This document shows, piece by piece, positions 226-35,053 of a DNA stretch of 49,977 bases; within the stretch, counting starts at the first letter, position 1; each line of letters starts with the position of its first letter. Source of the DNA: Desulfobacterales bacterium (GTDB lineage Bacteria; Desulfobacterota; Desulfobacteria; Desulfobacterales; SURF-7); contig JAQYVL010000037.1 in the NCBI GenBank assembly GCA_030145525.1, positions 1 to 49,977 of the forward strand. The letters run 5' to 3'. Made by a program: the position numbers and the translations under genes. The notes beneath the pieces were generated by a model. The model saw only the letters and a list, made by a program, of their open reading frames with translations. It made no database searches and had not been told where the DNA came from.

Positions 226-270
226 TTGTTCAATAGGGCCAGAAAAAATACGGTTTGTCAATAAAAATAT

Positions 271-281
271 GAACATCGTTC
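271..281. promoter_or_regulatory. Second copy of the box (GAACATCGTTC within AAATATGAACATCGTTCTTATT); candidate TetR operator
   Basis: It is a direct repeat of the 211..230 box and lies about 80 bp upstream of the TetR start codon. A weaker third copy (ATGAACAGAAGTT) is at 321..333. Confidence 0.4.
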
Positions 282-361
282 TTATTTTGTCATTATCATA
301 ACACGGTTTGAAAAATGGATATGAACAGAAGTTAATCAAATGCCTGCAGGTGATTTTATAA

Positions 362-994
362 ATGAAAGAGGCTGAAAAAAAGATTCGGACACCCGTCCAG
401 AGTAGGTCCAAAGAGAAAAAAGATCGTATTATCCGGGTTGCCTACGATCTTTTTAACGAAGAAGGATACAACGCGGTAAGCATTCGAAAGATCGCGAAGG
501 CAGCCGAGGTGTCGATTGGCACGATCTATTCCTATTTCCAGGATAAGCGTGATGTTTATATCGCGACTGTTGCATTATATGGCCATGATATGTATGACAA
601 CTTTTCATCGGTCATCGAAAACAAGAAGTTTTCAGCAGAAAATGTTGAGGAAATGGTATATGCAATAATCATAAAATTCAAAGAGATTATTCAATCCCAT
701 TACAATTTTCACCTGGATTCAGTTGTGCTTTCACTCACAGATGAAAAGATCCGTGAAGCACTGGCTGCGCAAGAGCATGAGATCGCCAATTCCGTCAGCA
801 CGTTGTTTGTCCAATTGATGGGGGATAAAATAGAAGTCCAGGATTATGAGGTTTCTACATTTATTGTGCATAAAGCGATCGAAGATATTGTGCAGCATAT
901 ATTGTTTTATAAAGTGGATCTCCCGGAGGAGCTTGTTTTTCGGGAATTGGCTTTAATGGTATCCAGGTATCTTGAGAAAAAATCTCCTTCATAG
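362..994 (+). CDS. TetR/AcrR family transcriptional regulator
   Basis: The N-terminal HTH region (RIIRVAYDLFNEEGYNAVSIRKIAKAAEVSIGTIYSYFQDKRDVY) is typical of TetR_N. The 210-aa size fits the family, and a target gene lies directly downstream. Confidence 0.85.
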   Translation: MKEAEKKIRTPVQSRSKEKKDRIIRVAYDLFNEEGYNAVSIRKIAKAAEVSIGTIYSYFQDKRDVYIATVALYGHDMYDNFSSVIENKKFSAENVEEMVYAIIIKFKEIIQSHYNFHLDSVVLSLTDEKIREALAAQEHEIANSVSTLFVQLMGDKIEVQDYEVSTFIVHKAIEDIVQHILFYKVDLPEELVFRELALMVSRYLEKKSPS

Positions 995-1013
995 AAAAAT
1001 ATAAGGAGGACGA

Positions 1014-2540
1014 ATGACCGATAGAAAAATAATCCGAAGGGGATTTGTCAAGAGTGTTGCAGCCATAGGGTTTTCTCTTTTCATCGTCAGTATGATTTCT
1101 GCCTGTTCAAAAAAAGATCCCTCTGGATACTCAAAGGATAAAAGGGAAACGATAGGCCTTGTTGAGGGCTATTCCGAGGCCCTCCCGAATATTGTCATTA
1201 TTAATGCCGATGATCTGGGATATGGAGATCTGGGATGCTATGGAAGCAGGGCGATCCAGACCCCCCGCATCAACAGCCTTTCGGATCAGGGAGTCCGGTT
1301 TACGGATTTTCATGCCTGTGATTCCGTATGCACGCCATCGAGGGCGGGATTGCTTACGGGGAGATACCCCAAAAGAATGCAGCTGGATATGCCGCTGCTT
1401 TCGGAAAACATGCCTTTCGGAAAAAGCATGCTGGTGAGATTAGGTTTTTTAATGGGGAAACTGGGTGTCACGGATATTGCAACCAAAGGCGGAGCTACAG
1501 GCATTCCAAAACATGAAATAACCCTTGCCGAGGCACTGAAAAAAAGAAATTATCGAACAGGCATGGTCGGCAAGTGGCACCTGGGTGACTATTCGGGCAA
1601 TCCGGAGCACAATCCAAGAAATCACGGTTTCGATTATTATTTCGGTGTTCCGCACAGTAATGATATCCATCCTTTTCCTCTTTACCGAAATGAAACGGAA
1701 CTGGAACCGGAGGTAACCGACCAGTCCAAACTTACCGGTCTATATACGGATGAAGCGATAAACTTTATAAAAACATCAAAGGGAGACCCCTTCTTTCTCT
1801 ATTTTGCCCATACTTTTCCCCACCGGCCTCTTTACGCGTCAAAAGATTTTAAAAATAGATCGGAAGGGGGTATCTTTGGAGACACAGTAGAAGAGATCGA
1901 CTGGAGCGTTGGCAGGATACTGGATACCCTGAAGGAAAATAATCTTGACAGCAACACGCTGGTTATATTCACCAGCGACAATGGCCCGTGGTATCAGGGA
2001 AGCCCCGGAGAATTCAGGGGGAGAAAAGGGCAAAGCTATGAAGGAGGCCACAGAGTGCCATTCATAGCGCGCTGGAAAGGGCATATCAAACCCGGAAGCA
2101 TCTGCACCGAATCTGCAATGAACATCGATTTATTCCCTACATGCCTGGCATCGGCAGGTCTTACCCTGCCTGATGACCGGATTATTGACGGCATGGATAT
2201 CAGGGACCTCCTTATACAGGAAAACAGCAAGACACCTCATGACTATTTCTTTTTTTATCATCACGGAGAACTGGAAGGAATAAGGACAGAGAACTGGAAG
2301 TATTTTCGTTCCATCAATCATTACAGCTGGCCGATGCCGGTAAATAAGAAATTTGGGAGTTTAATCAGTTATACAAACGGCCCCCTGCCATTGCTGTTTA
2401 ATCTGGGAATTGATCCCGGTGAATCTTACAATGTCATTGAAAAGTATCCTGGTAAAGCCAGAGAGCTTGAGAACGTAATGGCAAGGTGGGAAAAAGAAAT
2501 GACGGATAATCCGGGCGGCTGGATAAAGAGGGCGAATTAA
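1014..2540 (+). CDS. Cys-type sulfatase (arylsulfatase family), lipoprotein signal
   Basis: The formylglycine motif C-T-P-S-R is present (CTPSRAGLLTGRYP), along with NADDLGYGDLGCYG and SDNGPW motifs. The N-terminus carries a lipobox (MISAC). An AAGGAGGA RBS precedes the ATG. Confidence 0.9.
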   Translation: MTDRKIIRRGFVKSVAAIGFSLFIVSMISACSKKDPSGYSKDKRETIGLVEGYSEALPNIVIINADDLGYGDLGCYGSRAIQTPRINSLSDQGVRFTDFHACDSVCTPSRAGLLTGRYPKRMQLDMPLLSENMPFGKSMLVRLGFLMGKLGVTDIATKGGATGIPKHEITLAEALKKRNYRTGMVGKWHLGDYSGNPEHNPRNHGFDYYFGVPHSNDIHPFPLYRNETELEPEVTDQSKLTGLYTDEAINFIKTSKGDPFFLYFAHTFPHRPLYASKDFKNRSEGGIFGDTVEEIDWSVGRILDTLKENNLDSNTLVIFTSDNGPWYQGSPGEFRGRKGQSYEGGHRVPFIARWKGHIKPGSICTESAMNIDLFPTCLASAGLTLPDDRIIDGMDIRDLLIQENSKTPHDYFFFYHHGELEGIRTENWKYFRSINHYSWPMPVNKKFGSLISYTNGPLPLLFNLGIDPGESYNVIEKYPGKARELENVMARWEKEMTDNPGGWIKRAN

Positions 2541-2563
2541 TACATAAAAAATGAAAGATATAG

Positions 2564-2790
2564 CTTCTGACAGTCTCGTAAAAAGTCAAAACTCTGATGG
2601 CAAAGCAAAAAGTTCCCCGCTTTTAGCGGGGTTTCCGCTTCGCTCCAACAAGCTATTCCAGGCGCGCAAATCCCGAGGAATGAGTAGTAGTTAACCTACT
2701 CACGCCTATCGGCTACCGTTGCGCTTCGCTTAGCGGTACTGACGAGGGATGAAGCGCAACACAGAAATTGGACTTTTTACGAAGTCATCA
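2564..2790 (-). repeat. Intergenic palindromic MITE/REP-like element, copy A (long form)
   Basis: Terminal inverted repeats are CGTAAAAAGTC (2577..2587) and GACTTTTTACG (2771..2781). Internal perfect hairpins are GTTGCGCTTC...GAAGCGCAAC and CCCCGC-TTTTA-GCGGGG. The reverse complement aligns by eye along the whole of copy B at 32042..32195. Confidence 0.75.
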
Positions 2791-2794
2791 GCTT

Positions 2795-3448
2795 CTAGTA
2801 GTTCCAGCCGAGAAGACCAAAGGCGATTATATTCATAGCCGCCGCCAACGAATAGATCGCGCAAACGGCATAAATCTTCATCGCGTTCGTCTTTAGACCG
2901 ATAACCAGCATCGGGCTCAGGAAAAGAGGGAAATATCCGGCAAAAAAGATGGGCAGTACACCCGCCATTGACAATTTCCACCAGGGATATTCCCAGACCA
3001 GGTGCCCACCGATATTCAGCAGGCACTCAACAAATACGCAGAAGGACGCGTAGGAAAAGGACCAGAACAATCGGTTCGGAATTCCCAGGATTTTTGCATC
3101 CCTGTCCCTGGACAGCGTATTGTAATAAATGATTCCGGCAATAGAAAACATGAACATGATTTCGATGTTCCAGCCCACAGTCGTGCGTAGCGCTGTTTCT
3201 CCAGGAGCGGTCCAGAAGGCTGAATGCCCGGATAAATGGAATATCCAGCCGTTTATGGTTTCAAAAAGGAAATCCACACCGAAAAGCGTTGCACCTGCAA
3301 AAACAGGGTCCCAGTTTCCCGATTCCCTTGCCTTCTGAATTTCGGAAGTGTAGATATAAAAAACGATTGCCAGCAGGGGAAAAACATACCACTTGATCGT
3401 TGAAAGATCTCTGAGGCCTACCAACGCAAGCTCGGATGCAGATGTCAT
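2795..3448 (-). CDS. Multi-pass membrane protein of unknown function
   Basis: The ORF is hydrophobic and Trp/Phe-rich. A strong GAGGAGG RBS sits 5 nt before the internal ATG at 3448 (MTSASELALVG...), so this start is preferred over the ORF-track start at 3538. Confidence 0.6.
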   Translation of the reverse strand: MTSASELALVGLRDLSTIKWYVFPLLAIVFYIYTSEIQKARESGNWDPVFAGATLFGVDFLFETINGWIFHLSGHSAFWTAPGETALRTTVGWNIEIMFMFSIAGIIYYNTLSRDRDAKILGIPNRLFWSFSYASFCVFVECLLNIGGHLVWEYPWWKLSMAGVLPIFFAGYFPLFLSPMLVIGLKTNAMKIYAVCAIYSLAAAMNIIAFGLLGWNY

Positions 3449-3824
3449 TACAACCTCCTCATGGGTGCAGGGCAAGAAAATCGGCACTGATGGACTTTCT
3501 TGTTCTATCTCCATTACGGACCAATAAGATATTCTCACGTATTCAATTCATATTTTGAAATAAATGTCAAAACAAGAGGGAGTGATGATAGGGTATATGG
3601 AGATCGTGGAGCTTGTTAACCAGATCGCTACATGGATAAGAGTATTTAATTGTAAAAATTGAAACTTGACCTGGCAGTCTTTGTAATTCGTTTTTGTTTT
3701 TCTTTACAGATCAGATGAAAAATCCAATACTTTCGATCCAACAGCATCAGGGCAAATTTTAAAGAACACAGATTTTGAGGAAGGCATTTCCCTTTTAGTT
3801 TTTCTGTTTCAGGTGTGTTAGCAA

Positions 3825-3860
3825 CAATACCGGTTCATTCAAGAAAATGAACCGGTATTG
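3825..3860 (-). terminator. Perfect 15-bp stem hairpin downstream of hcp (terminator-like, no clear U-tract)
   Basis: The hairpin is CAATACCGGTTCATT-caagaa-AATGAACCGGTATTG and starts 35 nt after the hcp stop. Only TT follows it on the minus strand. Confidence 0.45.
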
Positions 3861-3894
3861 TGCGGAAGTCAGAAGACCTTTTCGATTGGTATGG

Positions 3895-5655
3895 TTATCC
3901 CAAAATGGCTTTAAGATCGTTTTCCGGTGTATCGATCGGCATAATATTATAATTTTTTACCAATACATTTAAAACATTTGGAGTAATAAATGTCGGCAGC
4001 GTGGGCCCCAAGCGTATGTCTTTGATTCCCAGTGAAAGAAGGCTGAGAAGAATCGCAACCGCTTTTTGTTCGTACCAGGAGAGGACAATGGAGAGCGGAA
4101 GTCCGTTAACATCCGTATTGAATGCTTTGGCAAGTGCTACGGAAATCTGTACAGCGGAATAGGCGTCGTTACACTGTCCGACATCGAGAAGTCTTGGAAT
4201 TCCGTTGATATCACCCAGCTTTTGTTTAAAGAATTTGAATTTTCCGCAGGCAAGGGTGAGAATAAGCGTGTCATTCGGGGTTTTCTCGACAAATTCAGTG
4301 TAGTAGTTTCTGGATTTTTTTACCCCATCACAGCCTCCAACCAGGAAGAGATGCCGGATGGATTTATCCTTGACCCCGGCGATGATTTTATCGGCTACGC
4401 CCAGAACACTCTTGTGGCCGAAACCCACCATGATTTTCATGTCCTCTATATCCTCCGTATATCCTTCAAGTTCCAGCGCCTTGTCGATAAGAGGTTTCAG
4501 GTTGTTCTTATTAATATGGGCGACACCCGGCCATCCCACCGTACCGGTTGTGAATATATTTTTTTTATAGGATTTTCTCGGTTTTTGAATACAGTTTGAG
4601 GTCATCAGGATGGCGCCGGGAAATTTATCAAATTCTTTTTTCTGGTTCTGCCATGCAGTACCGTAATGACCGTAGAAATGGGGGAATTTTTCCTTCAGTT
4701 TGGGATAGCCGTGACACGGAAGCATTTCCCCGTGCGTGTAAACAAAGATTCCTTTGCCCGCACTGGCTTTCAGGACAGCTTCAAGGTCAATGAGATCATG
4801 GCCGGAAACCAGTATAGCTTTGCCTTTTTTAGCTCCCAGTGGTACTTCGGTCGGCACCGGATGCCCATAGGCTTTTGTATTGCCTATATTGAGCAGTTCC
4901 ATGGCCCGGATATTCTTTTCTCCGCATTCAAGCACCAACGCAAGCAATGCATTGAGATCTTTTGTTTTATCCGTAAGTGCTGCCAGTCCCCGGTGTACGA
5001 ATTCGTAATTGGCATCGTCTTCCTCTCCGTGTTCGGCTGCATGATCCGTGTATGCTCCCATTCCTTTAATGCCGTACAGGAGAAGATGCTGCAGCGATCT
5101 GATATCCGGATCAACATCCGGATCAGACATCAAACCGTATTGTCTGCCCTGGGCAATCATACCTTCCAGAGAAGGTTTCAGTTTGAGTGTTAACGAGTCA
5201 CTGCTTGAAGAAATTTTTCCTCCAGCGGCTTTTACTTTTTGGATCATCTTGTCCCTTAATTCAGTGGATTCGGATAGCAGGTCTTCAAAACGATAAGGGT
5301 CAAATTCCACGTTTGTCAGTGTTGAGAAAAGAGCCATACAGGTAAAGCGGTTGGTCTTTTGATCATTAATGTTCACTTTTCTACCCGCCTCTGCCGCTAT
5401 GGAAATTCCTTTCAACATGTGGATCAATAAATCCTGAAGTGCAGCAACCTCCGGCGTTTTTCCGCATACGCCGATTTTGGTGCAGCCTTTGCCTCCCATG
5501 GTCTGTTCGCATTGGTAGCAGAACATTTTTTGTTTTGATTTGGATTTGGCCTCTGCCTGATCGGTTTTTAATATCGATGGCAGCAAGGTTGCACCGGTAA
5601 CGGCAATTGTACTTTTTTTAATAAAGTTTCTTCTTGACAGGTTTTGATCTTTCAT
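3895..5655 (-). CDS. hcp: Hybrid-cluster protein / hydroxylamine reductase with N-terminal twin-arginine signal peptide
   Basis: The N-terminal Cys motif MFCYQCEQT...GCTKIGVCGK is preceded by about 43 aa containing SRRNFIK plus a hydrophobic stretch and AEA. The rest of the 586 aa follows the Hcp/prismane pattern. Confidence 0.9.
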   Translation of the reverse strand: MKDQNLSRRNFIKKSTIAVTGATLLPSILKTDQAEAKSKSKQKMFCYQCEQTMGGKGCTKIGVCGKTPEVAALQDLLIHMLKGISIAAEAGRKVNINDQKTNRFTCMALFSTLTNVEFDPYRFEDLLSESTELRDKMIQKVKAAGGKISSSSDSLTLKLKPSLEGMIAQGRQYGLMSDPDVDPDIRSLQHLLLYGIKGMGAYTDHAAEHGEEDDANYEFVHRGLAALTDKTKDLNALLALVLECGEKNIRAMELLNIGNTKAYGHPVPTEVPLGAKKGKAILVSGHDLIDLEAVLKASAGKGIFVYTHGEMLPCHGYPKLKEKFPHFYGHYGTAWQNQKKEFDKFPGAILMTSNCIQKPRKSYKKNIFTTGTVGWPGVAHINKNNLKPLIDKALELEGYTEDIEDMKIMVGFGHKSVLGVADKIIAGVKDKSIRHLFLVGGCDGVKKSRNYYTEFVEKTPNDTLILTLACGKFKFFKQKLGDINGIPRLLDVGQCNDAYSAVQISVALAKAFNTDVNGLPLSIVLSWYEQKAVAILLSLLSLGIKDIRLGPTLPTFITPNVLNVLVKNYNIMPIDTPENDLKAILG

Positions 5656-9858: not shown

Positions 9859-12800
9859 ATGACCAAGAAAGTCATTGGATCTGTTATGGTTTTAGGCGGA
9901 GGTATTGCAGGAATGCAGTCCGCTATAGACCTGGCCAACTCAGGATACTATGTTTATCTCGTCGAAAAATCATCAGCCGTTGGAGGGCTGATGTCCCAGC
10001 TTGATAAGACCTTCCCAACCAACGACTGTGCCATGTGAATTATATCACCCAAACTGGTCGAGGTCGGCCGGCACATAAATATTGAACTATTGACAAACAG
10101 CGAGCTTGAAAGTCTTGAGGGCGGACCCGGTAATTTCAAGGTCCGTGTGAGACAGGAACCGCGCTTTATTGATCTGTCCAAATGCACAAGCTGTGGAGAG
10201 TGTGATAAAGTATGCCCTGTTGAACTCCCAAATGAATATGATGAAGGACTTTCAACCAAAAGAGCTGCTTTTAAAAAATATGCCCAGGCAATCCCCGGTG
10301 CTTTTGCAATAGATAAAACGGATAATGCGCCATGCCGTTTGGCGTGCCCTGCCGGACTTAATGTTCAGGGCTACGTTCAAATGGTGAAGCAGGAAAAATA
10401 TGAAGAGGCGCTGCAAATTATTATGGAAGACCTTCCTCTTCCGGGAGTTCTCGGACGCATCTGTCCGCATGGCTGTGAAGATGCCTGCCGCCGATGCGAG
10501 GTGGAGGAGCCGGTCGCAATCTGTAAATTGAAACGACTTGCTGCCGACCGGTTTGATCCAAGGGATGTCAAAATTGATTGTCAGCCTGAAAAGGAGGGCA
10601 AAGTTGCGATTATCGGTTCCGGTCCGGCAGGCCTTTCTGCTGCCTATCATCTTGCACGTAAAGGGATCCAATCGACAATTTTTGAATCTTTGCCAAAGCC
10701 CGGCGGGATGCTGAGAGTGGGGATCCCGGATCATCGACTTCCCCCCGAAGTTCTTGACAGGGAGATAGAGGTCATAACAAACCTCGGTGTTGAGATAAAG
10801 ACGAATACTCCCCTCGGTCCTGAGTTGGCGATTGATGACCTTTTGGGGGATGGATACAAAGCGGTATATCTGGCAATGGGGGCTCATAAAGGTATTGAGC
10901 TTGGCATACCGGGGGAAAAAGCGGAAGGCATCCGCCAGGGAGTTGATTTTTTAAAAGAGGTAAACCTGACCGGAAAGGCAGAGGTTGGGAAAAAAGTTGC
11001 GATAATAGGCGGCGGAAATGTGGCGATTGATGTTTCCCGATCTGCAATAAGGCTTGGTGCAGAAGAAGTTACGATAATTTATCGCCGAACGAGAGCAGAA
11101 ATGCCTGCATGGGAAGAAGAAATCCATGCCGCTGAGGAAGAAGGTGTCGGAATAACTTATCTGTCGGCCCCCCAGGAAGTTCTTGTTCAAGAAGGCAGAG
11201 TCAGAGGCCTTCGATGTATCCGGATGGAGTTGAGTGAACCGGATTCATCCGGCCGCAAGAGGCCTGTTCCTGTTCCCGGAAGTGAATATGATATAGAGAT
11301 TGATCAGATTATTCCTGCAATCGGCCAAAGGCCGGATTTGTCTGTGATAGAGGATGTGACCGGTCTCACTTTTTCACGTTGGGGAACGACAGAAGTGAAT
11401 GCGGTAACCTATGCCACTGAGCGAGAAGGTGTTTTTGCCGGTGGAGACCTGCAGACCGGCCCATGGGTAGCCATAGGCGCAATCGCCGCAGGTCGTGAGG
11501 CGGCGGAATCTATCGCAAGATTCATAGATGGGCTTGATATGGAAGAGGGTCGCGAGCCTGTTGTAAATGAAAGCCCTGTTTATCGTCCGATTCCCGAGGA
11601 TCAGGTTAAGCAGGCAAGAGAAAAATTACCGGAACTGCCGGTAGAAGATCGTAAAGGTAATTTTAAGGAAGTGGAACTGGGCTTTGATGATGATGCCGGG
11701 CAAAAGGAAGCGGCAAGATGCCTTAATTGCGGCTACTGCTCCGAGTGCTTGCAGTGCGTTGATGTTTGTCTGGCAGGTGCAATTGATCACAGTCAGAAAA
11801 CTGAAATGAAAGAAATAGAAGTAGGCTCGGTAATCCTTTCCGCAGGAAGCAGGCCTTATGATCCTTCCGCTTTGGATGAATTTTATCATTACAAGACAAA
11901 TCCAAATGTCCTTACCAGCCTTGAGTTTGAAAGAATTTTAAGCGCTTCAGGCCCTACAATGGGGCATCTCGTTAGACCATCTGACAATAAGGAACCCAAA
12001 AAAATTGCCTGGCTTCAGTGCGTCGGATCAAGGGATAACAATAAGTGCGGCAATGGATATTGCTCTTCAGTTTGCTGCATGTATGCCGTTAAGGATGCAA
12101 TGATAGCCAAAGAGCATTCGAAAGAAGATCTGGACTGTGTTGTCTTCAATATGGACATCCGAACATTTGGTAAAGATTATGAAAAGTATTATAATCGTGC
12201 AAAGGACAAGGAAGGCGTCCGGTTCGTAAAAGCCAGAATCCATACCATCGGTGAAATCAGGGAAACCGGTGATCTTAACATTCGGTATGTGGACGACTCA
12301 GGCGCAATCTGTGAAGAAATATTTGATATGGTTGTGCTTTCCGTGGGTCTTCAAATAGAAGAATCAACGATTCAACTGGCGAAAAAGCTTGAAATTGATC
12401 TTGATAAATACAGTTTTGCCGATACACAACCCTTCACTCCTGTTGTGACCACGAGACCCGGGATATATGCATGTGGTGCTTTACAGGGGCCAAAGGATAT
12501 TCCGAGTTCGGTTACCGAGGCAAGTGCTGCCGCTGCCGCTGCCGGAATTTGTCTTGCAGACGCACGCGGTACCTGCACAAAATCTGTTGAAATTCCCGAG
12601 GAGATGGATGTCAGCGGTGAGGAGCCAAGGATTGGTGTATTTGTATGTAACTGCGGCATAAACATAGCCGGAGTTGTTGATGTCAAAGCTGTGGAAGAAT
12701 ACGCAAAAAGTATTCCGGGAGTGGTGTTCAGTACTCAAAATCTGTTTACCTGTTCCCAGGATTCACAAGACCAGATGAAGGAAATAATCAAGGAAAATAG

Positions 12801-14292
12801 ACTTAACAGAGTAGTCGTTGCCGCATGCACTCCGAAAACTCATGAAGGAATATTCATGGACACTCTCGAGGCTTGCGGTTTGAACAAATACCTTTTTGAA
12901 ATGGCAAATATTCGCAATCAGAATTCATGGCCGCATTCTGATGAGCCTGATACGGCAACGCAAAAGGCAAAAGATCTGGTGAGGATGGCGGCTGCCAGAG
13001 CGGCGACCCTCACACCGTTACATGAAAAAAAGATTTCCGTTATAGAAAGGGCACTGGTAATCGGAGGTGGCGTTTCCGGTATGAATGCCGCGTTAAATCT
13101 GGCGGATCAAGGATTTGAAGTGGTTCTGATAGATAAAGAGGCGGAACTGGGAGGCATGGCTAAACACCTCACGGAGACAATTGAGGGTGAAAATATAAGC
13201 ATTTACCTTGAAGAGCTCATTCGAAAGACTACTTCACATCCCAGGATTCAATCTTTGACGAACTCACTTGTTGTGGGGTTTTCGGGCTTTAAGGGGAATT
13301 TCAACACCGAAATACTGGTGGGGCCCGGTATGTATGAAAGAAAGATTGAACACGGTGTGGTCATTCTTGCAACAGGTGCAAATGAATATCAGCCCAAGGA
13401 GTTTCTTTATGGAGAAGATGAAAGGGTTGTAACCCAGGTCGAGCTTTCACAACAACTTGATGAAAAAGGGGCAGAGGGCCTTGACAGGGTAATCATGATC
13501 CAGTGCGTGGGATCAAGAAATGATGAAAATCCCAACTGTTCAAGGATTTGCTGCCAGGCCGCCATAAAAAATGCACTGCACATCAAGAAGCTTCGCCCTG
13601 ATACCGAAGTATTTATTCTTTATCGAGATATTAGATCATATGGTCTTCTTGAAGATTATTATACCGAGGCCAGAAAGCTCGGGGTTATTTTTTCACGGTA
13701 TGAGGCGGATAATCCGCCTGAGGTTAAAGTTGAGGATGGAGAGCTTTTTGTTACTTTCAGGGATCATGTTCTTGGTTGTGATCTAAAGGCGAGCGCTGAT
13801 ATTCTGGCCTTAAGCGCCGGTATGATAGCGGAGGATACGGAAGAACTCGCTTCGATCGTAAAGCTTGCGCGAAATGCGGAAGGCTTTTTTATGGAAGCAC
13901 ATGTAAAGCTCAGGCCTGTAGAAATGGCTACGGAAGGAATATTTATTTGCGGCACGGCCCATAGCCCCAAACTTATTACCGAGTCAATCGCCCAGGCACA
14001 GGCTGCGGCATCAAGAGCGGTTACCTTCCTTTCACAGTCCAGTTTGACCCTGTCGGCTGTTGTTGCGGAAGTAGAGGGAGAAAAGTGTGCTTCCTGCCTT
14101 ATTTGTGTACGCTCCTGTCCTTATGGCGTACCAAAAATAAATGAGGAGGGTGTCAGTGAGATCGATGAAGCCCTTTGTCACGGGTGTGGTGTTTGTGCAG
14201 CGGAATGTCCGGCTAAAGCGATTGAGCTTCACTGGTACGAGGATGATCAGTTACTTAGCAAGGTAGAGGCTTTGCTGGAAGGGGTGTTATGA
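9859..14292 (+). CDS. hdrA: Giant HdrA-like flavoprotein (tandem HdrA modules with embedded GltD/NfnB-like NAD(P)H module), selenocysteine at TGA 10036..10038
   Basis: ORFs 9844..10038 and 10090..14292 are in the same frame and separated only by one TGA. Read-through gives [18 protein letters not shown], the conserved HdrA DCxMC motif. GxGxxG FAD sites, the VGSRD...CSxxCC motif (twice) and 4Fe-4S CxxCxxCxxxCP motifs are present. GGAGGG precedes the ATG at 9859. Confidence 0.85.
10054..10071 (+). promoter_or_regulatory. Candidate bacterial SECIS hairpin for the hdrA UGA
   Basis: CUGGUC-GAGGUC-GGCCGG forms a 6-bp stem including G-U pairs, with a 6-nt loop containing GGUC. It starts 15 nt after the UGA. 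Confidence 0.4.
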
Positions 14293-14744
14293 AGCAGGAT
14301 TTTGAACCGATTATCGTCTCGTTTTGCTGCAATTTCTGAGGGTATACGGCAGCGGACCTGGCAGGTTCGATGAGGCTTAGCTATCCTACAAGTATTAAAA
14401 TTATTCGAGTTCCATGTACCGGCAAGGTAGATGTTATCCATATTCTCAGATCCTTTGAAAAAGGAGCGGATGGAGTTTATGTGGTCGGATGTATGGAAGG
14501 AGACTGCCATTTTAATAAAGGCAATTTTAGAGCCCGAAAACGGGTGGAACAGGCTCAAAAACTGCTGGAAGATATCGGAATCGGTGGGGAACGGGTAAAG
14601 ATGTACAACCTTTCTTCGAGTGAAGCGCCGCTTTTCGTAGAATATGCCAAAGAGATGTCAGAGAAGATTCTTGAACTTGGACCCAATCCGATTAAGGAGG
14701 CAAAAAAAAGTTTACGCGGGCAAAATGAGGCTGTCTCCGGCTGA
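14289..14744 (+). CDS. mvhD: MvhD/FlpD-like [2Fe-2S] protein with selenocysteine at TGA 14337..14339
   Basis: The ATG at 14289 overlaps the hdrA stop (ATGA). The frame is continuous with ORF 14370..14744 through one TGA. The translation [27 protein letters not shown]...IIRVPCTGKVD matches the MvhD motif CCNWCxYxxADxAG, with Sec at the Cys position. Confidence 0.8.
14353..14369 (+). promoter_or_regulatory. Candidate bacterial SECIS hairpin for the mvhD UGA
   Basis: CGGACC-UGGCA-GGUUCG forms a 6-bp stem with a 5-nt loop containing GG. It starts 13 nt after the UGA. Confidence 0.4.
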
Positions 14745-14823: not shown

Positions 14824-15492
14824 ATGATTGTTGCCGAAAGAAAACCGATTGATGAAATTATTGAAAAGATAAAGGATTACAATAAAATTCTTCTTTTGGG
14901 ATGTAATGAATGTGTTACGGTTTGCGAGGCCGGTGGGAAGAAGGAAGTCGGTGTGCTCGCCTCAGCTCTTCGAATGTATTTTTTGAATAAGGGAAAAGAG
15001 ATACTTATTGATGAAATTACCCTGGAGCGGCAGTGCGATCACGAGTATCTTGAAGAAATTCGCGACAGGATCGATCAATATGATGCCGTACTTTCCCTTG
15101 CCTGTGGTGTGGGCGTGCAGTTCATGGCTGATAAATATTTGTCAACACCAGTGTATCCAGGTGTTAATACATGCTTTTTAGGTGCTACGGAGAAGAGGGG
15201 GCTGTGGACCGAGAGGTGTCAGGCCTGCGGGCAGTGTATTCTCGCAAGCACCGGCGGAATCTGTCCTATATCCCGTTGTGCCAAGCGTGTTTTAAATGGT
15301 CCGTGCGGAGGGTCAACCAATGGTAAATGTGAACTCAGTAAAGAGCTTGATTGCGCCTGGCAGTTGATCATAGATCGGTTAAAAGCGATGGACAGGCTGG
15401 ATGATTATGAAAAACTGGCGGATATAAAGGACTGGTCCTCTGATAGGGCCGGGGGACCCAGAAAAGTTGTCAGGGAGGATGTTCAGGAATGA
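14824..15492 (+). CDS. metV: MetV-like Cys-rich small subunit of methylene-THF reductase (MTHFR C-terminal-like domain)
   Basis: Cys clusters are present (GCNECVTVCEAGG; CQACGQCILASTGGICPISRCAK...GPCGG). Its stop overlaps the metF start (ATGA). The gene order matches the known hdr-mvhD-metVF clusters. Confidence 0.75.
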   Translation: MIVAERKPIDEIIEKIKDYNKILLLGCNECVTVCEAGGKKEVGVLASALRMYFLNKGKEILIDEITLERQCDHEYLEEIRDRIDQYDAVLSLACGVGVQFMADKYLSTPVYPGVNTCFLGATEKRGLWTERCQACGQCILASTGGICPISRCAKRVLNGPCGGSTNGKCELSKELDCAWQLIIDRLKAMDRLDDYEKLADIKDWSSDRAGGPRKVVREDVQE

Positions 15493-16418
15493 GCGAAAAA
15501 ACATCAAGCAAACTGGAAAGAATTCTTGCCTCAGGCAATCTTGCCGTAACATCTGAATGTGGGCCGCCCCGAGGCACTGATCCTGAAGCGATTATTGAAA
15601 AAGCAAATCTGATAAAGGATTATGTCGATGCGATTAACATAACGGATAATCAGACCTCTGTTACTCGGATGTGCAGCCTGGCAGCGTGTATCCGGCTGAA
15701 ACTTATGGGCCTGGAGCCGGTTCTTCAAATGGTGACCAGAGATCGAAACAGAATTGCTTTGCAAAGCGATATTCTTGGCGCGGCTTCCTTTGATATTAAT
15801 AACATGCTATGCCTTTCAGGTGACCACCAGAGCTTTGGTGACTGTGCAGCAGGGCAGAACGTTCATGACCTTGACTCAATGCAGCTCCTTCAACTGGTGA
15901 GGAAAATGCGGGATGAAGGGAAATTTCTGGGTGGAGATGAGATTAAACGTCCTCCAAAAATGTTTGTCGGTGCTGCGGCCAACCCTTTTGCAGATCCATT
16001 CGAAATTCGGGTACCCCGCCTTGCAAAAAAGGTCGCTGCCGGTGCTGAATTTATTCAGACTCAATGTATTTATAATCTGGATAAGTTTGAGAAATGGATG
16101 GAAGGAGTCAGAGAGCGGGGTTTGCACGAGAAAGTCCATATCCTCGCGGGCGTTACCCCGTTTAAATCAGCCGGTATGGCACGATATATGAAAAACAGAG
16201 TGCCTGGTATGGATGTCCCTGATGATGTGGTCAAGAGGATGGCGGACACGCCAAAGGAAAAACAGGCGGAAGAAGGAATCAACATCTGTGTGGAATCGAT
16301 CCAGCGTCTTAAAGAAGTTGAGGGAGTTCATGGATTTCATGTGATGGCCATTGAATGGGAAGAGAAAGTCCCGGGAATAATAGAAAGGACAGGGCTCTAC
16401 CCCAGACCCGAAGTATAG
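15489..16418 (+). CDS. metF: Methylenetetrahydrofolate reductase
   Basis: The 309-aa protein has the MTHFR pattern (ECGPPRG, INITDNQ, RDRNRIALQSDILGA, FVGAAANP, GAEFIQTQ). It is translationally coupled to metV. Confidence 0.88.
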   Translation: MSEKTSSKLERILASGNLAVTSECGPPRGTDPEAIIEKANLIKDYVDAINITDNQTSVTRMCSLAACIRLKLMGLEPVLQMVTRDRNRIALQSDILGAASFDINNMLCLSGDHQSFGDCAAGQNVHDLDSMQLLQLVRKMRDEGKFLGGDEIKRPPKMFVGAAANPFADPFEIRVPRLAKKVAAGAEFIQTQCIYNLDKFEKWMEGVRERGLHEKVHILAGVTPFKSAGMARYMKNRVPGMDVPDDVVKRMADTPKEKQAEEGINICVESIQRLKEVEGVHGFHVMAIEWEEKVPGIIERTGLYPRPEV

Positions 16419-16742: not shown

Positions 16743-17129
16743 ATGAGCGATAAAAAGACGATTCTTGTTGTTGATGATGAGCCTGATTTTGCTTCAATTG
16801 TACAGGCAAATCTCAAAAAGGAAGGCTTCAACGTAGAAGTGGCCTATGACGGTGTAGAAGCCCTCGAAAAGGTTAAGGCAAATCCGCCGGACGCGATTGT
16901 ACTCGATGTCATGATGCCTGAAAAGGACGGATTTGAGGTATGTTCGGAATTGAAAAAAGATGAAAAGTACATGGATATTCCCATTATCATGCTTACAGCT
17001 GTTGCAGACCATGTCAGTTCCACAAGATATTCTCATCATAGCGGGATGAGCATGGAGGCTGATGATTATCTTCCAAAACCAGCTTCCGCAGAAGACATTC
17101 TAGAAAGTGTAAAAAGTCTTCTTGAATAA
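16743..17129 (+). CDS. Stand-alone response-regulator receiver (CheY-like)
   Basis: The sequence ILVVDDEPD...DAIVLDVMMPEKDG...MLTA...KP is a 128-aa receiver domain only. A GGGGGGAGG RBS precedes it. Confidence 0.85.
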   Translation: MSDKKTILVVDDEPDFASIVQANLKKEGFNVEVAYDGVEALEKVKANPPDAIVLDVMMPEKDGFEVCSELKKDEKYMDIPIIMLTAVADHVSSTRYSHHSGMSMEADDYLPKPASAEDILESVKSLLE

Positions 17130-17382
17130 GGTATAATACCGGATTTTCACTTCATTTTTTTTTACACCAAATTGAGTAAATTTCCCGGGAAGAGCCGTTG
17201 AGGTTTAAGCGGCAGTTGACCTCTTTTACATCTTCCCGGAATTGATTCCGGGCGTTAATGGGGATTAAATCTGTTTCGAGATTGCAGGCCCTCTTTTTAA
17301 ATACCTTTAAGATGAATCGGCATTTTGTATAATCCGGAGTAATTTTTTCCCCACATCCCCCCCAAGCCAAACGGGTACAGGC

Positions 17383-18201
17383 ATGAAGACTTTTTGTATC
17401 TTAGGAGACGAACGTTCTTTTCGGTCAAAATCTCCGGTTATTTTTTCTGCGGTATTGAAGAGAGTCGGGATAAGAGGCGTGTATGTTCCTTTCAAGGTTG
17501 ATAAGGGGCAAATCGGTCCTGCAATGCAGAGTCTCAGGATTCTCAACATTGATGGCGCAAATATAACAGTGCCTTATAAGGAGACAGTCATACCGCATTT
17601 GGATATTCTTTCCGAAGGGGCCAATATTATAGGGGCGGTTAATACGGTCGTAAGAAATGGAGAAACGCTTAAAGGTTATAATACAAACGCAATTGGTTTT
17701 ATGGATACTCTGGAAGAGGTTGGATTTGATGTCGCAGGCAAGACTGCAGTTGTTTTCGGAACAGGGGGGATTGCAAAAGCAGTTGTTTTTATCCTTAACT
17801 GGCTTCGGGCGGAGCCGATTCTGGTTGCCGGCAGGGATGAAAACAGTATCTCCGGAATTGTAAATAAAATTGGCGGCATACCAAAACCGCTTCAAACATT
17901 TAACGATGCTCCTGTGTCTGCAAATATTGTAGTGAATGCGACCTCTGTTTCAAGCCCTGATGAGTCGCCGGAGCTGGCGGAACTTGTTGATCGGCTTGAT
18001 ATCAGAGACTGTGAAGTTTTAATGGATGTCAATTATGGCCGGGAAGTAAATTTTTGGGAGAGTAAAGCCCGGGAAAAAGGAATCAGATTTTTGGATGGAC
18101 TTTCCGTGCTGGCTCATCAGGCAAGAAGAAGCTTTTCGCTCTGGACAAGAATTGATGTGGAGGTTGAAGAGTTCCGAAAGGCATTGGAAAAGGATCTATA
18201 A
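17383..18201 (+). CDS. aroE: Shikimate dehydrogenase-like protein (AroE family, NTN instead of NTD motif)
   Basis: NITVPYKE, GAVNTV and the GTGGIAKA Rossmann motif are present. The canonical GYNTD reads GYNTN. Confidence 0.8.
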   Translation: MKTFCILGDERSFRSKSPVIFSAVLKRVGIRGVYVPFKVDKGQIGPAMQSLRILNIDGANITVPYKETVIPHLDILSEGANIIGAVNTVVRNGETLKGYNTNAIGFMDTLEEVGFDVAGKTAVVFGTGGIAKAVVFILNWLRAEPILVAGRDENSISGIVNKIGGIPKPLQTFNDAPVSANIVVNATSVSSPDESPELAELVDRLDIRDCEVLMDVNYGREVNFWESKAREKGIRFLDGLSVLAHQARRSFSLWTRIDVEVEEFRKALEKDL

Positions 18202-18209
18202 GAGGGAAA

Positions 18210-19697
18210 ATGCGTTCAGAATTAGAAAAAGAATATCTGTTAAAAGCAATCGATGCTTCAAAAAGAATATTTTTTATTATTTCACCTGATTTTGAAATCC
18301 TTGCAACCAACAGATACACCACGGAAAAGTATGGGCCCGATATGATCGGCAAGAAGTGCTACAACCTTTTGTGTGATTGGGAGTCGCCCGGTGACAATTG
18401 CCCTGCCCTGAATGTAATTCAGGGGTTGGAACCTGTTTTACGGAAAAAAAATAATGAGGACTCTTCCGATAAATGGACCACGTGCCGTTATTCGTATCCT
18501 ATATTTTCAGGAGAAAAAATTGACGCCGTCGCCGTATTGGAGTTTGATCGACCTTCTCGGGAAGAGATAGAGGAACAATTAAGACACGCCAATGCATTTT
18601 TTAAAAATCTTATTTTGAGTTCCGTGGATGGTGTTATTGCAGCGGATAAAACAGGGAGGATTTTGATTTTCAATGATGCGGCGGTGGAAGTCAGCGGTTA
18701 CAGTGTTGAGGAAGCGCTTGGCAATCTGGATATTCGTGATTTTTATCCGGGAGATGCAGCCCGGGAGATCATGCAAAAGTTAAGAAGTGATGATTTCGGA
18801 GGTAAAGGTAAGCTTAAATCATATCAAGTGGATGTGATCAAAAAAGATAGAGAAATCATCCCGATCAGATTGAATGCAGCCATTGTTTATAAGGGTGATA
18901 AGGAGGTGGCTTCAATTGGCTTTTTTCATGATATGCGTGAAGATCTTCGCATTAAATCCGAACTTGAAAAAACTCAAAGTCAACTTCTTCAGGCAGAAAA
19001 AATGTCTTCTTTAGGCAAGCTGTCTGCGGGTGTCGCTCATCAGTTGAATAATCCGCTTGGAGGAATTACTCTTTATACCAAATTTCTTTTAGAGGATTAC
19101 GATCTGGCAGATGATGCGAAGAAGGACTTGAATCGTATTCTGCAGGAGGCTAAGAGGTGCAGCGACACGGTTAAGGAACTTTTAGAATTCGCAAGACAGA
19201 CCAGCCATATGGTAAAACCGAATGATTTAAACAAGGCGCTTTTGAGGACTATGTTTTTGCTCGAAAATCAGACGCTTTTTCAGAACATAGAAATTGAAAA
19301 AAACTTCAAGGAAAATCTGCCGCAGGTTCCGGTAGATATACAACAGATGAACCACGTGTTTATGAACATAATTTTGAATGCGGCACAGGCTATGGATGGG
19401 AAAGGAACATTGACTCTGACAACCAAATTCGCTCCGACAGGAGACAGGGTTATTGTTGAAATAGCTGATACGGGTCCAGGAATACCTGAAGATACCCTGA
19501 AACACATTTTTGAACCGTTCTTTACAACCAAGGAGGAGGGAAAGGGTACGGGACTCGGGTTGAGCATGGTTTATGGAATTATAGAAGACCATGGCGGAAA
19601 AATAACTGCTAAAAGCAAGGTTGGCAGCGGTACTACCCTGATAATTGAGCTTTCGCTAAAAACGGCTAATGAAGGGGGAAAAGAAAGTGGAGAATAA
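18210..19697 (+). CDS. PAS-domain sensor histidine kinase (cytoplasmic)
   Basis: It has a Cys-containing N-terminal sensor region ([21 protein letters not shown]), a PAS domain, an H-box ([15 protein letters not shown]) and an HATPase domain ([16 protein letters not shown]). Confidence 0.9.
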
Positions 19698-21174
19698 ACT
19701 TGACACCGGAAGAGTTCTCGTTATCGACGATGAACAGGTATTGAGAGATGGTGCGGAACGGATACTTATCCGAATGAATTTTCAGGTGTTCAAAGCTTCA
19801 CGAGGGGATGAGGGATTAAAAATTCTGGAAAAAGAACCTGTTTCAATCGTCCTTTTGGATATGAAAATGCCCGGCATGGACGGAATGGAGGTTCTGAAAC
19901 GTATCAAGGAGATGGAAAGAGGCATTCTTGTGATTGTAATCACCGGTTTTGCCACTGTTGAAACAGCGATTGAAGCCATGAAACGAGGGGCTTATGATTT
20001 CATTCCAAAACCTTATGAGCCGGATCAACTGCGGATTGTTGTAAACCGTGCTCGTGAGAAAATGCAGCTGCAGCAGGAAACCGAAAAACTTGAAAAAGAA
20101 CGGAGGCGTACCCTTGCAGATCTGCATACATCGCAAAGCCGGGTTTATACGATTATCGAGTCGTTGCCGAATGGTGTGCTGGTAACCGATACAAATGGAA
20201 AGGTAGTTCTTTTAAATCCGGCTTTCCGTCAGCATCTTGGGATTGCAAGGGATATGGAGCCGGGAGGAGAGCTTGCATCGTATATAGATGATGAAAATCT
20301 CTGTAAGCTTATTATCGATATTTCACGCGGGAAATACGTGGATTTTGATGATATTCCAAATTATGAGCTGAATCTTGCCGGCGGAAAGTTCCTATTGGCA
20401 AGAGCAAGACCTGTTCTGGGGGAGAAAAGGGAATGCCTGGGGGCCGTGACAAATATCATGGATGTTTCCGCAATGAAGGCGCTGGATCAGTTGAGATCCG
20501 AGTTTGTTGCGAAAGTCTCCCATGAGCTGCGTTCGCCTCTTTCTACGATCCACGAACAACTCGCAATGGTTTTGAACGATATGGCCGAAGGGGCATCAGA
20601 GAATGAACAGCATATCATTTCCCGTGCAAAGGAAAAAACAAAGGGGCTTATCTCTTCAATAGGTGATTTGCTCGACCTGTCTCGAATAGAAGCGGGGATT
20701 GTATCAAAGGAATCAAAACCGGTTCAGGTGGGAGAACTTTTGAAAAGCATAGTTGACTTTCTTGGTGCGAGAGCAACCGCAAAAAAGCAGACACTTGAAC
20801 TTGAAATAAGCGGCGAGCCCCTTCCTACGATTTATGCTGATCCAATGGCTCTTGAAAGTGTATACGGAAATCTGATAACAAATGCAACAAACTACACACA
20901 GGAAGGCGGTGAAATTAAAGTTATTGCTGACAAGGCCGGGGCAAATTTGAGAGTTGTCGTGAAGGACAACGGTTATGGTATTGATGCAAAATATATGGGA
21001 AAGATATTTGAGAAATTTTATCGGGTCAAAAATGAAAAAACAAGATTCATAACCGGTACAGGCCTTGGATTGCCCATCGTAAAAGGTATTGTTGATTCGC
21101 TGGGAGGCTATATAGATGTGGAAAGTGAAACAGGAAAAGGAACGTCCTTTACCGTCCTGTTACCGATAAAATAA
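19669..21174 (+). CDS. Hybrid receiver-PAS-histidine kinase
   Basis: It has an N-terminal receiver (VLVIDDEQ...LLDMKMPGMDG), a PAS domain, a HisKA domain (FVAKVSHELRSPLSTI) and an HATPase domain (DNGYGI, GTGLGLPIV). The start is uncertain: the ORF overlaps the upstream gene by 29 nt, and a GTG near 19686 is possible. Confidence 0.88.
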   Translation: MKGEKKVENKLDTGRVLVIDDEQVLRDGAERILIRMNFQVFKASRGDEGLKILEKEPVSIVLLDMKMPGMDGMEVLKRIKEMERGILVIVITGFATVETAIEAMKRGAYDFIPKPYEPDQLRIVVNRAREKMQLQQETEKLEKERRRTLADLHTSQSRVYTIIESLPNGVLVTDTNGKVVLLNPAFRQHLGIARDMEPGGELASYIDDENLCKLIIDISRGKYVDFDDIPNYELNLAGGKFLLARARPVLGEKRECLGAVTNIMDVSAMKALDQLRSEFVAKVSHELRSPLSTIHEQLAMVLNDMAEGASENEQHIISRAKEKTKGLISSIGDLLDLSRIEAGIVSKESKPVQVGELLKSIVDFLGARATAKKQTLELEISGEPLPTIYADPMALESVYGNLITNATNYTQEGGEIKVIADKAGANLRVVVKDNGYGIDAKYMGKIFEKFYRVKNEKTRFITGTGLGLPIVKGIVDSLGGYIDVESETGKGTSFTVLLPIK

Positions 21175-23394: not shown

Positions 23395-24824
23395 TGTTTG
23401 AGACAATCGCAAAGCGTCATTTGTGTTTTCTGTTTATCATGTCAGTTCTCCTGCATTTTAGTGAAGCAGGGGCAAGGGAGGCGCCGGAAGATAACGTCAT
23501 CCTGCCGGGAAGTTTCAGCCATCTTGCGGAATCCGTCAGCCCGGCAGTGGTTAATATCAGAACCGAAAAGATTACAAAAGGCGGCGGTCGGGTATTCCGC
23601 CATTTCCCCAGACGTCCATTCGGCCATGATGATCCTTTTAATGATTTTTTTGAGAGATTTTTTGGAGATGACCCTAAGCGGGAGCACAAGCAGAGGAGCC
23701 TTGGCTCAGGTTTTATAATTGATCAGGATGGACATATCGTCACAAACAGTCATGTTATTGAAAATGCTGATAAAATTAAAGTAATACTAAAAGATGGTAA
23801 GGAATTTGAAGCCAAGGTGGTCGGTCTTGATTCAAAGACGGACATTGCCCTTATAAAGGTTGATCAGAAACAGAATTTGCCTTCTGTGAAGTTTGGAGAT
23901 TCTGAAAGTCTCATGGTCGGTCAATGGGTTGTCGCCATTGGAAGTCCATTCGGTCTTGAGCAGACTGTAACAGCCGGTATTGTAAGCGCAAAAGGGCGTG
24001 TAATCGGCTCCGGTCCGTATGACGATTTTATCCAGACTGACGCATCTATTAACCCGGGCAATAGCGGCGGCCCTCTACTGAATATGGATGGTGAGGTGAT
24101 CGGGATTAACACGGCTATTATAGCAAGTGGCCAGGGAATCGGCTTTGCCATTCCGATTAATCTCGCAAGGGGTATCATAGCTCAGCTTAAAGATCATGGG
24201 TCGGTGATACGCGGCTTTTTAGGTGTATCGATTCAGAATTTAAGCAAGGATCTTGCTGAGTATTATAATATCCAGGATGGGAGAGGCGTTTTTGTCGTCG
24301 AGGTCGTTCCAGGAGGCCCTGCAGATAATGCAGGCATTGCTGCAAAAGACATAATTCTGGAGGTGAACGGCAAGAAATTGGAAACCAGTCGCGCATTGTC
24401 TGGTTTGGTTGCGGATACTGCAGTTGGTAAGACAATTGAAATGAAGCTGCTTCGCGATGGAGAGAATAAAATAATCAAGGTCGAGATTGGAAGGATGGAG
24501 GATGAGAAAATTCAGTCCGGTCTGCCTTCAGAGCAGAGAGAAGAAGATCTTGGATTAGAACTCACTGAACTTACGGATGATATCGCTAAAGAATATAATT
24601 TGACTGAAACAACGGGTGTGATTGTCGTAGATGCGGAGCCTGACAGTAAAGGTGAAGAAGCGGGAATTTTACATGGTGATGTTATAAAGGAGATCAATCA
24701 CAATCCCGTAAAAAATTTGAAAGGCTTTAAAAAAATTCTTGAGGAAATGAAAAGCGGAGAATTGATTCAGATATTTATAAAGCGGAAAAATGTGGGATTT
24801 CTGGTTTTCAGAATTACGAAATAG
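23391..24824 (+). CDS. degP: Periplasmic serine endoprotease DegP/HtrA (two PDZ domains)
   Basis: It has a signal peptide, catalytic H/D/S motifs (TNSHV, DIALIKV, GNSGGPLLN) and two PDZ-like segments. Confidence 0.92.
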   Translation: MMFETIAKRHLCFLFIMSVLLHFSEAGAREAPEDNVILPGSFSHLAESVSPAVVNIRTEKITKGGGRVFRHFPRRPFGHDDPFNDFFERFFGDDPKREHKQRSLGSGFIIDQDGHIVTNSHVIENADKIKVILKDGKEFEAKVVGLDSKTDIALIKVDQKQNLPSVKFGDSESLMVGQWVVAIGSPFGLEQTVTAGIVSAKGRVIGSGPYDDFIQTDASINPGNSGGPLLNMDGEVIGINTAIIASGQGIGFAIPINLARGIIAQLKDHGSVIRGFLGVSIQNLSKDLAEYYNIQDGRGVFVVEVVPGGPADNAGIAAKDIILEVNGKKLETSRALSGLVADTAVGKTIEMKLLRDGENKIIKVEIGRMEDEKIQSGLPSEQREEDLGLELTELTDDIAKEYNLTETTGVIVVDAEPDSKGEEAGILHGDVIKEINHNPVKNLKGFKKILEEMKSGELIQIFIKRKNVGFLVFRITK

Positions 24825-24870
24825 TTACAGCCCCGGAAAGCGTTGCAGAATAAAATACGTATTTTCAAAA

Positions 24871-25730
24871 ATGCAGATAAATAAACCTCATGTTAGGGCT
24901 TTATCCCCTGCAAAAATAAATCTTTTTTTAAAGGTGACAGGCAAAAGACCCGATGGATACCACAATCTCCATACCCTCATGTGTGGAATTACGCTTTTTG
25001 ATAATCTTTTGTTTGAATTTGACGAATCGAATATCCGTGTGTGTTGCTCTCATCCTGAAGTGCCCGAGAACAATTCCAATCTGGTGTGGAGAGCCGCAGA
25101 TATTTTTTTAAGAAACATGGACAGAATCTGCGGCATAAAAATCACTATTGAAAAAAGATACCGGTTGGCGCGGGCTTAGGTGGCGGGAGCAGCAACGCTG
25201 CAACAGTGCTGAAAGTTCTTAATAAATATTTCGGTTTAAAATTTTCAGATGATAAACTCAGGGATATAAGCCTTGAGATCGGTGCAGATGTCCCCTTTTT
25301 TATCAGTGGCAGACCAGCTGTTGCGGAGGGGGTCGGAGAGAAGCTTCAAATAGTTGATCAGTTGAAGCCTTTTCATGTCTTATTGGTCAATCCCGGGTTC
25401 AGTGTTTCAACAGCAAAGGTTTATAAAAACCTTAATTTAGGATTGACAAAATGTGAAAAAAAAATTACAAAGACTCTTTTTAACGGTATATCAGTTGATA
25501 TCCCTGAAATTTTATGTAACGACCTTGAAACCGTTACGGCAAAAATGTTCCCTGACATTGAGAGGGCTAAAGCGCAACTGATTCAGGCAGGTGCCGAAGG
25601 GGCGCTGATGTCCGGCAGCGGGCCGACTGTGTTCGGCCTTTTTTCTGATGCGGATCAGGCTAAAAAAGCATATGGGGGGCTCGGACAGTTCAGTGAGAAA
25701 AATAAATTTTTGGCGGAGCTGATCGTTTGA
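24871..25730 (+). pseudogene. ispE: 4-diphosphocytidyl-2-C-methyl-D-erythritol kinase, interrupted by a 1-nt frameshift in the A6 run at 25151..25156 (possibly a sequencing artefact)
   Basis: The N-terminal part (LSPAKINLFLKVTGKRPDGYH) lies in frame 1 and stops at 25179. The GHMP motif IPVGAGLGGGSSNAA is read only after shifting frame inside GAAAAAAG. Adding one A restores ...ITIEKKIPVGAGLGGG. Confidence 0.85.
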
Positions 25731-34300: not shown

Positions 34301-34370
34301 GGTTTCCTCCTAACTTCCTGAAATACACATTAATAATAAAATAATGAAAGCGATCAAATAAATATTAAAA

Positions 34371-34425: not shown

Positions 34426-34466
34426 GATTTGGTACCTTCCTGCATCATCCAAAAAGTCTAACCTTG

Positions 34467-35039: not shown

Positions 35040-35053
35040 TTTATTTTCTCCCG

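Follow-up and report, generated by a model that had tools for sequence, protein, structure and literature searches.

A predicted selenocysteine codon in an mvhD-like gene between hdrL and metVF in a Desulfobacterales genome

Proteins of the MvhD/VhuD family (PF02662) are experimentally verified selenoproteins with a CxxU motif (U, selenocysteine, Sec), and the archaeal representative contains two Sec residues (2026 review, PMC13188914). Among the Desulfobacterales, Desulfobacterium autotrophicum HRM2 is reported to have Sec-containing hdrA1, hdrA2, hdrL1, hdrL3, mvhD1, mvhD2, mvhD3 and mvhD5 as well as selABCD, and an mvhD gene follows every hdrA or hdrL gene except hdrA4 (PMC2702500). Similarly, Desulfococcus multivorans has a UGA codon and a selenocysteine insertion sequence (SECIS) element in mvhD (dmul_C28840/50) and hdrA, with selABCD in the genome (PMC5109826). 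In the class II benzoyl-CoA reductase of Geobacter metallireducens, Sec19 of the subunit BamF replaces a Cys near the [2Fe-2S] cluster, and in methanogen MvhD that Cys can form a disulfide (bioRxiv 10.64898/2026.04.10.717634). Furthermore, the genes for MvhD, an HdrA-type flavoprotein and MetV/MetF are encoded together for the methylene-tetrahydrofolate (methylene-THF) reductase complex MetFV-HdrABC-MvhD of Moorella thermoacetica (PMC5861303). Here we describe an mvhD-like gene in a stretch of 49,977 nucleotides from a Desulfobacterales bacterium (GenBank assembly GCA_030145525.1, contig JAQYVL010000037.1, positions 1 to 49,977 of the forward strand; hereafter the window). This gene lies directly downstream of an HdrA-type gene, hdrL, an arrangement that is kept in related loci, and its frame contains a TGA codon.

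We put the probability at roughly 0.93 that the TGA at codon 17 is a Sec codon, served by a SECIS element within the open reading frame (ORF), in a 151-residue MvhD-type [2Fe-2S] electron-transfer protein. With this gene a known selenoprotein family gains a new member, in a genomic arrangement that is also known, and conceptually the find offers nothing new. Its ATG (14289-14291) overlaps the TGA stop (14290-14292) of the upstream 1400-codon ORF, and no other start codon occurs in this frame between an upstream TAG and the UGA, the one TGA that links the frame to the ORF at 14370-14744. The purine-rich sequence GGAAGGGG, located 5-12 nt 5' of the ATG, is conserved in loci L001-L005. An earlier reading of the letters by a model (the original prediction) had proposed both the ATGA overlap and the passage through one TGA into the downstream ORF, and both are seen in the sequence.

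Profile searches were run with the read-through product, in which Cys was substituted for U. The product matched Pfam PF02662 (FlpD/MvhD) with 166.4 bits (E = 3.3e-49; cut-off 22.3), and the match covered the whole domain, with residues 9-131 corresponding to positions 1-123 of the 123 profile positions. Hence, the alignment to the MvhD family that the original prediction had proposed as a check restored the complete profile in the full-length reading. On the NCBIfam VhuD model NF045873, the full product scored 181.4 bits over model positions 1-131, and the 124-residue ORF that starts at ATG 14370 scored 142 bits over positions 24-131 only. Because both scores are below the cut-off of 215, the protein is to be classified by sequence as an MvhD-like bacterial protein and not as the archaeal hydrogenase subunit VhuD. 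Matches to sequences in the PDB were 9SFI_K, 9SW2_D, 7BKB_F, 5ODC_D, 8RVU_F and 8RVV_F, with E-values from 9e-44 to 1.7e-34.

The original prediction had further claimed that the UGA replaces a conserved Cys of the CCxxC segment, and homologue alignments agree. At least 90% of 30 full-length homologues, with the motif FCCHYCAY, have Cys in the column of the UGA, and C14, C43, C68 and C73 are invariant in this alignment. The set of Cys residues of the [2Fe-2S] region (the N-terminal CxxC, the C of VPCTG, and GCxxxxC) is present, with position 17 being the UGA. The predicted peptide around Sec17 reads FCCNF-U-GYTAADLAGSMR. A literature search for the Cys ligands of the [2Fe-2S] cluster in MvhD yielded nothing useful. 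The deposited sequence of 9SFI_K, the VhuD of Methanococcus maripaludis, has X at two positions. X14, the first of them (...FVCYQXGYGAADLAG), is exactly aligned with U17, and we read it here, from the aligned sequences, as probably one of the two Sec residues of VhuD; the second X aligns with C68.

A different reading is that the UGA is a genuine stop, that the real gene is the 124-residue ORF from ATG 14370, and that the 16 upstream codons form a leader which is untranslated or separately translated. This is how databases present the gene, as the nearest database proteins (80-100% identity) are all called with 122-124 residues from the Met that follows the UGA, the equivalent of ATG 14370, and this Met28 is invariant in UGA-type genes. 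However, calls from Met28 are the usual output of automatic gene callers at any Sec codon, and a product truncated in this way is without the CCxxC segment at its N-terminus: profile positions 1-23 are missing, and with them C14 and the CxxC/U position that every full-length homologue conserves. Moreover, the only Shine-Dalgarno-like sequence before ATG 14370 is the hairpin described below, and the 16 upstream codons fit the family profile and differ among 85 loci at synonymous positions while their amino acids are kept. A start at ATG 14370 together with homologues lacking the N-terminal segment had been named in the original prediction as evidence that would speak against it; the full-length homologues keep the segment. 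We therefore consider a genuine stop very unlikely.

A genome scan with one genome per species returned 80 loci with 68-95% identity, nearly all from metagenome-assembled genomes (MAGs) of Desulfobacterales. Together with five other loci, this gave 85 related loci, nearly all from Desulfobacterales genomes or metagenome contigs. Codon 17 was TGA in 80 of the 80 genome loci and in all five other loci, and in the 80 loci its context was FCC[NSQ][FY]-TGA-GY[TS]AADLAG. In the five contigs that encode the closest proteins, the frame can be followed upstream past the TGA as far as an ATG that overlaps the stop of hdrA; the upstream peptide is kept and the nucleotide changes are synonymous. Across the 85 loci, the 16 codons before the UGA are conserved at the protein level and their third positions vary. 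The UGA, which aligns with Cys or Sec in homologues, is flanked on both sides by conserved coding sequence. The codon might also be a pseudogene lesion or an assembly error, and the window does contain other disrupted genes, namely a NifS-like gene with a TAA and an ispE-like gene with a homopolymer frameshift. However, this TGA is shared by 85 independent assemblies of different species and stands at a known Sec position, and on this comparison of sequences a lesion or an error appears effectively refuted. Three UGA-type loci (L046, L049 and L076) were found in MAGs labelled Hyphomicrobiales, Nitrospinaceae or Anaerolineales; with 74-78% identity to Desulfobacterales sequences, these contigs were probably mis-binned rather than laterally transferred.

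The RNA just 3' of the UGA folds into a hairpin with G in its apical loop. It was found by folding in two forms, with 7 bp and a GGC loop or with 6 bp and a UGGCA loop, and starts after a spacer of 13 nt; the original prediction had described the 6-bp form and this spacer. The positions +15 to +29 after the U of the UGA are 100% identical in 83 distinct UGA-type sequences. This invariant block coincides with the 6-bp stem and its loop, and includes the third base of each of five codons, for Ala, Asp, Leu, Ala and Gly. Synonymous sites were invariant at 5 of 5 positions inside the hairpin versus 0 of 38 outside it (-48 to +89; hypergeometric p ~1e-6), where degenerate sites had a median pairwise identity of 0.45. 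At the degenerate sites that flank the 15-mer, the top-base frequency was 0.37-0.58. The outer pair C14353:G14369 was present in only 44 of the 83 sequences. In at least 79 of the 83 the 21-mer forms this same hairpin, to which the three commonest structures (42, 25 and 12 sequences) all belong.

As a control we used 117 distinct Cys-type genes that encode the motif FCCxxCxYxAADLAG. Here the five sites are free to vary (top-base frequency 0.42-0.71), the 15-mer was found in none of the 117 and the 21-mers had no common hairpin. These results support nucleotide-level selection on a putative SECIS hairpin that is specific to UGA-type genes. The element resembles the fdhF-type SECIS of Escherichia coli, an in-ORF hairpin shortly after the UGA that carries a G in its apical loop and binds SelB. 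As in that type, the hairpins of mvhD and hdrL lie in the ORF and start 13-15 nt after the UGA, and their apical loops both contain GG, with the G residues ~23-27 nt away from the UGA. In contrast to fdhF, the stem is shorter and no bulged U was identified; SelB binding is suggested here by analogy.

Several observations weigh against this interpretation. The hairpin is small, and the folding energy of the single sequences was no better than that of shuffled sequences (z = -0.83 for mvhD and -0.56 for hdrA/hdrL). RNAalifold returned a weak consensus of 4-5 bp for the 83 sequences because nothing covaries; covariation support is absent since the stem never varies, so that the stem rests on the invariance of synonymous sites. 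Four of the 83 sequences have a G.A instead of a G.U pair. In Rfam, an E-value scan of 14280-14430 gave no match for the element except mir-327 noise (E = 1.9), and a gathering-score scan of the window found a tRNA-Gln and no SECIS model. Finally, there is no selA, selB, selD or tRNA-Sec within the 50-kb window. A tRNA-SeC (anticodon tca) was detected by ARAGORN at 1722-1810 of L140, an unrelated short metagenome contig with a Cys-type mvhD, as the only one among all fetched loci.

The upstream gene hdrL has its own in-frame UGA (Table 1). Its product has the Pfam domains Pyr_redox_2, Fer4_20, FAD_oxidored and Fer4, and matches HdrA chains in the PDB (8RVV, 8RVU, 5ODC and 9SFI; E-values down to 1.9e-185); residues ~155-636 match chains of the NfnA/NfnB/GltD type. 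The UGA codon of hdrL is TGA in 59 of the 59 related loci that reach it, and Cys-type homologues have TGC or TGT at this codon. A hairpin begins 15 nt after this UGA, and the similar spacing in both genes had been noted in the original prediction. The block from +18 to +37 (CTGGTCGAGGTCGGCCGGCA) matches the hairpin; its 20 nt, including six synonymous sites, are invariant in 56 distinct sequences. In HdrA of M. maripaludis, a Cys-Sec197 pair lies between a [4Fe-4S] cluster and the bifurcating flavin adenine dinucleotide (FAD) (PMC13518236), and the UGA site of hdrL may correspond to this one.

Table 1. Positions of the mvhD-like gene, its putative recoding signals and the neighbouring genes of the module in the window.
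Feature	Position	Strand	Remarks
mvhD-like gene, full length	14289..14744	+	151 codons including UGA-17; TGA stop at 14742-14744
ATGA, overlap of mvhD start and hdrL stop	14289..14292	+	same place in 70/86 loci; putative translational coupling
Purine-rich, Shine-Dalgarno-like GGAAGGGG	14277..14284	+	within the 3' end of hdrL; putative function
In-frame UGA, predicted Sec17	14337..14339	+	motif C14-N-F-U17 (CxxU); Cys/X alignment, TGA in 85/85 loci
SECIS-like hairpin of mvhD	14353..14369	+	minimum-free-energy fold; core 6-bp stem G14354-C14368, loop GGC at 14360-14362
Invariant SECIS core GCGGACCUGGCAGGU (GCGGACCTGGCAGGT)	14352..14366	+	15 nt; encodes A-D-L-A-G of AADLAG
hdrL, large HdrA-like flavoprotein	9859..14292	+	1477 codons with in-frame UGA; NfnB/GltD-like NAD(P)H module inserted
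First in-frame UGA, predicted Sec60 of HdrL	10036..10038	+	motif FPTNDCAM-U, CxxU pair
SECIS-like hairpin of hdrL, CUGGUCG-AGGU-CGGCCGG	10054..10071	+	7 bp, loop AGGU; minimum-free-energy structure
metV (DUF5981), small subunit of MetVF-type methylene-THF reductase	14824..15492	+	PF12225, E = 5e-37
metF, methylenetetrahydrofolate reductase	15489..16418	+	PF02219, E = 3.6e-38

The Sec states of mvhD and hdrL co-occurred in 59 of 59 loci. Among Cys-type mvhD loci with the hdrA site in reach, 38 had Cys versus 3 with TGA at that site. The closest Cys-type relative is protein P0013, encoded at locus L206 (JGI Ga0164310_10005587; mvhD 4757-5188, hdrL 267-4703), which has the same gene order as the window (hdrL, mvhD, metV, metF, response regulator). 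At this locus the mvhD site reads TGC, but the 15-nt SECIS core is unaltered and the TGA of hdrL persists; from its sequence it looks like a recent replacement of Sec by Cys that left a fossil SECIS. Because L206 combines Cys in MvhD with predicted Sec in HdrL, the two Sec sites appear not to be obligately linked. The original prediction had taken the two adjacent Sec codons as a sign that the module depends on selenium, and had proposed a comparison of Cys and Sec at both positions. Co-occurrence stood up in this comparison, and strict linkage did not. The module may depend on selenium. Desulfobacterales make heavy use of selenium, and a Sec/Sec HdrL-MvhD-MetVF module as the rule among the closest relatives fits this habit.

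A close homologue at one further locus, L207 (143-574, an ENA contig with 2x coverage), has TGG (Trp) at the Sec position and an intact SECIS core; the TGG may reflect faulty sequencing or a rare variant. These two loci bear on the idea that the UGA is read through as an amino acid other than Sec, by near-cognate insertion of Cys or Trp or under a reassigned code. The TGG of this single contig might be taken in its favour, and the TGC of L206 indicates that other residues are tolerated at the site. However, plain read-through would not need a conserved SECIS-like hairpin specific to UGA-type genes, and the homologous VhuD site is an X in a solved structure of a protein to which the review cited above assigns two Sec residues. 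An alternative genetic code was ruled out because UGA is a normal stop in the window, where 13 of the 37 genes end in TGA. Insertion of a residue other than Sec thus has a very low probability in our view.

We now compare the predicted Sec codon and its surroundings with the systems introduced above. VhuD of M. maripaludis, M. jannaschii and M. voltae (9SFI chain K) has the same PF02662 fold (E = 9e-44) and the residue that we read as Sec at the same CxxU position, and its partner HdrA also has Sec in a CxxU motif, as predicted for HdrL here. VhuD differs in its second X, where the window protein has C68. It bridges the Vhu hydrogenase or Fdh to HdrABC, whereas the partners here are HdrL and MetVF. 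In archaea, SECIS elements are located in untranslated regions, unlike the element just after the UGA in the window.

The mvhD genes of D. autotrophicum and D. multivorans likewise come from Desulfobacterales, directly follow a Sec-containing hdrA or hdrL and have the SECIS within the ORF. The published loci have dsr, fdh or mvhAG as neighbours, however, and are likened to this metVF-linked copy by arrangement and not by orthology. BamF is likewise homologous to MvhD and serves as a [2Fe-2S] adaptor that connects an electron-input module with an HdrA-like bifurcating flavoprotein, but its chain is longer by over 100 residues and includes additional domains. Judged by position only, Sec19 of BamF probably equals U17. 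By analogy, Sec17 may act near the [2Fe-2S] cluster.

The Moorella complex includes HdrB and HdrC, whereas the module in the window has no adjacent hdrB or hdrC, and the HdrA of Moorella is replaced here by the 1477-residue HdrL with its NfnB-like NAD(P)H module. The Moorella complex is not known to contain Sec. Genes metV and metF were syntenic in 79 of the 85 Sec-type loci, and the four-gene module hdrL-mvhD-metV-metF was present in at least 62 of these 85, a count limited by contig ends; it also occurs elsewhere in Cys-type form. No hydrogenase gene adjoins the module in the window. Downstream of metF (16743-21174, plus strand) lie a response regulator, a shikimate dehydrogenase gene and two PAS histidine kinases, an arrangement that is kept in L001-L004.

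From these features a sequence of events can be proposed for mvhD. Ribosomes would start mvhD at ATG 14289, probably right after finishing hdrL at the overlapping ATGA. A short hairpin 14-17 nt past UGA-17, which has a GG-containing apical loop and lies within the AADLAG coding sequence, would then hold SelB.GTP.Sec-tRNA(Sec) nearby, and Sec would be inserted in place of termination. The resulting Sec17 would replace the last Cys of the CCxxC motif, at the same position as the first X in archaeal VhuD. Going further, HdrL-MvhD-MetVF might be, in many Desulfobacterales, an obligately selenium-dependent, electron-confurcating methyl-THF dehydrogenase/methylene-THF reductase, in which Sec17 and C57-x-x-U60 of HdrL form a selenol/thiol relay between the [2Fe-2S] cluster and the bifurcating FAD. 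We regard this proposal as speculative and rather unlikely to hold in full.

The reading also has consequences for annotation. In public gene calls the mvhD protein and those closely related to it are cut short at 122-124 residues, by which part of the cluster-binding motif is lost, and hdrL is likewise split at its own UGA. Correct gene models of mvhD and hdrL are needed for the metabolic reconstruction of complete-oxidising sulfate reducers. The SECIS cores GCGGACCUGGCAGGU (mvhD) and CUGGUCGAGGUCGGCCGGCA (hdrL) offer handy nucleotide signatures for finding such genes.

A scan of the window for UGA-interrupted genes gave 77 mechanical candidates; besides hdrL and mvhD, the minority that was checked one by one lay at annotated gene ends or within genes of another frame or strand. 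Two other genes of the window are disrupted in a different manner. A NifS/IscS-like class-V aminotransferase gene of the cysteine desulfurase type (47525-48706, minus strand) has an in-frame TAA at 47978-47980 (HGAGQ*KGYRAGTEN), which divides it into ORFs of 242 and 137 residues. Related NifS/IscS proteins presumably have Glu at the interrupted position. A Sec codon was ruled out here, as the codon is TAA; the gene either has a nonsense mutation, is a pseudogene or contains a base error. An ispE-like GHMP kinase gene (24790-25730, plus strand) is split over two frames near 25151-25157, and one extra A in a run of A restores EKKIPVGAGLGGGSSNAA. UGA recoding was ruled out for this gene, the split being a homopolymer frameshift that is either an indel, hinting at assembly errors, or real. 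Finally, the minus strand carries an Rnf operon (RnfC, D, G, E and A; 32213-39152), which has a multihaem cytochrome c gene (38523-39152) in front of it and ends in a gene for a 695-residue protein (32213-34300) with RnfB-like Fe-S domains fused to an NfnB/GltD-like NAD(P)H flavoprotein.

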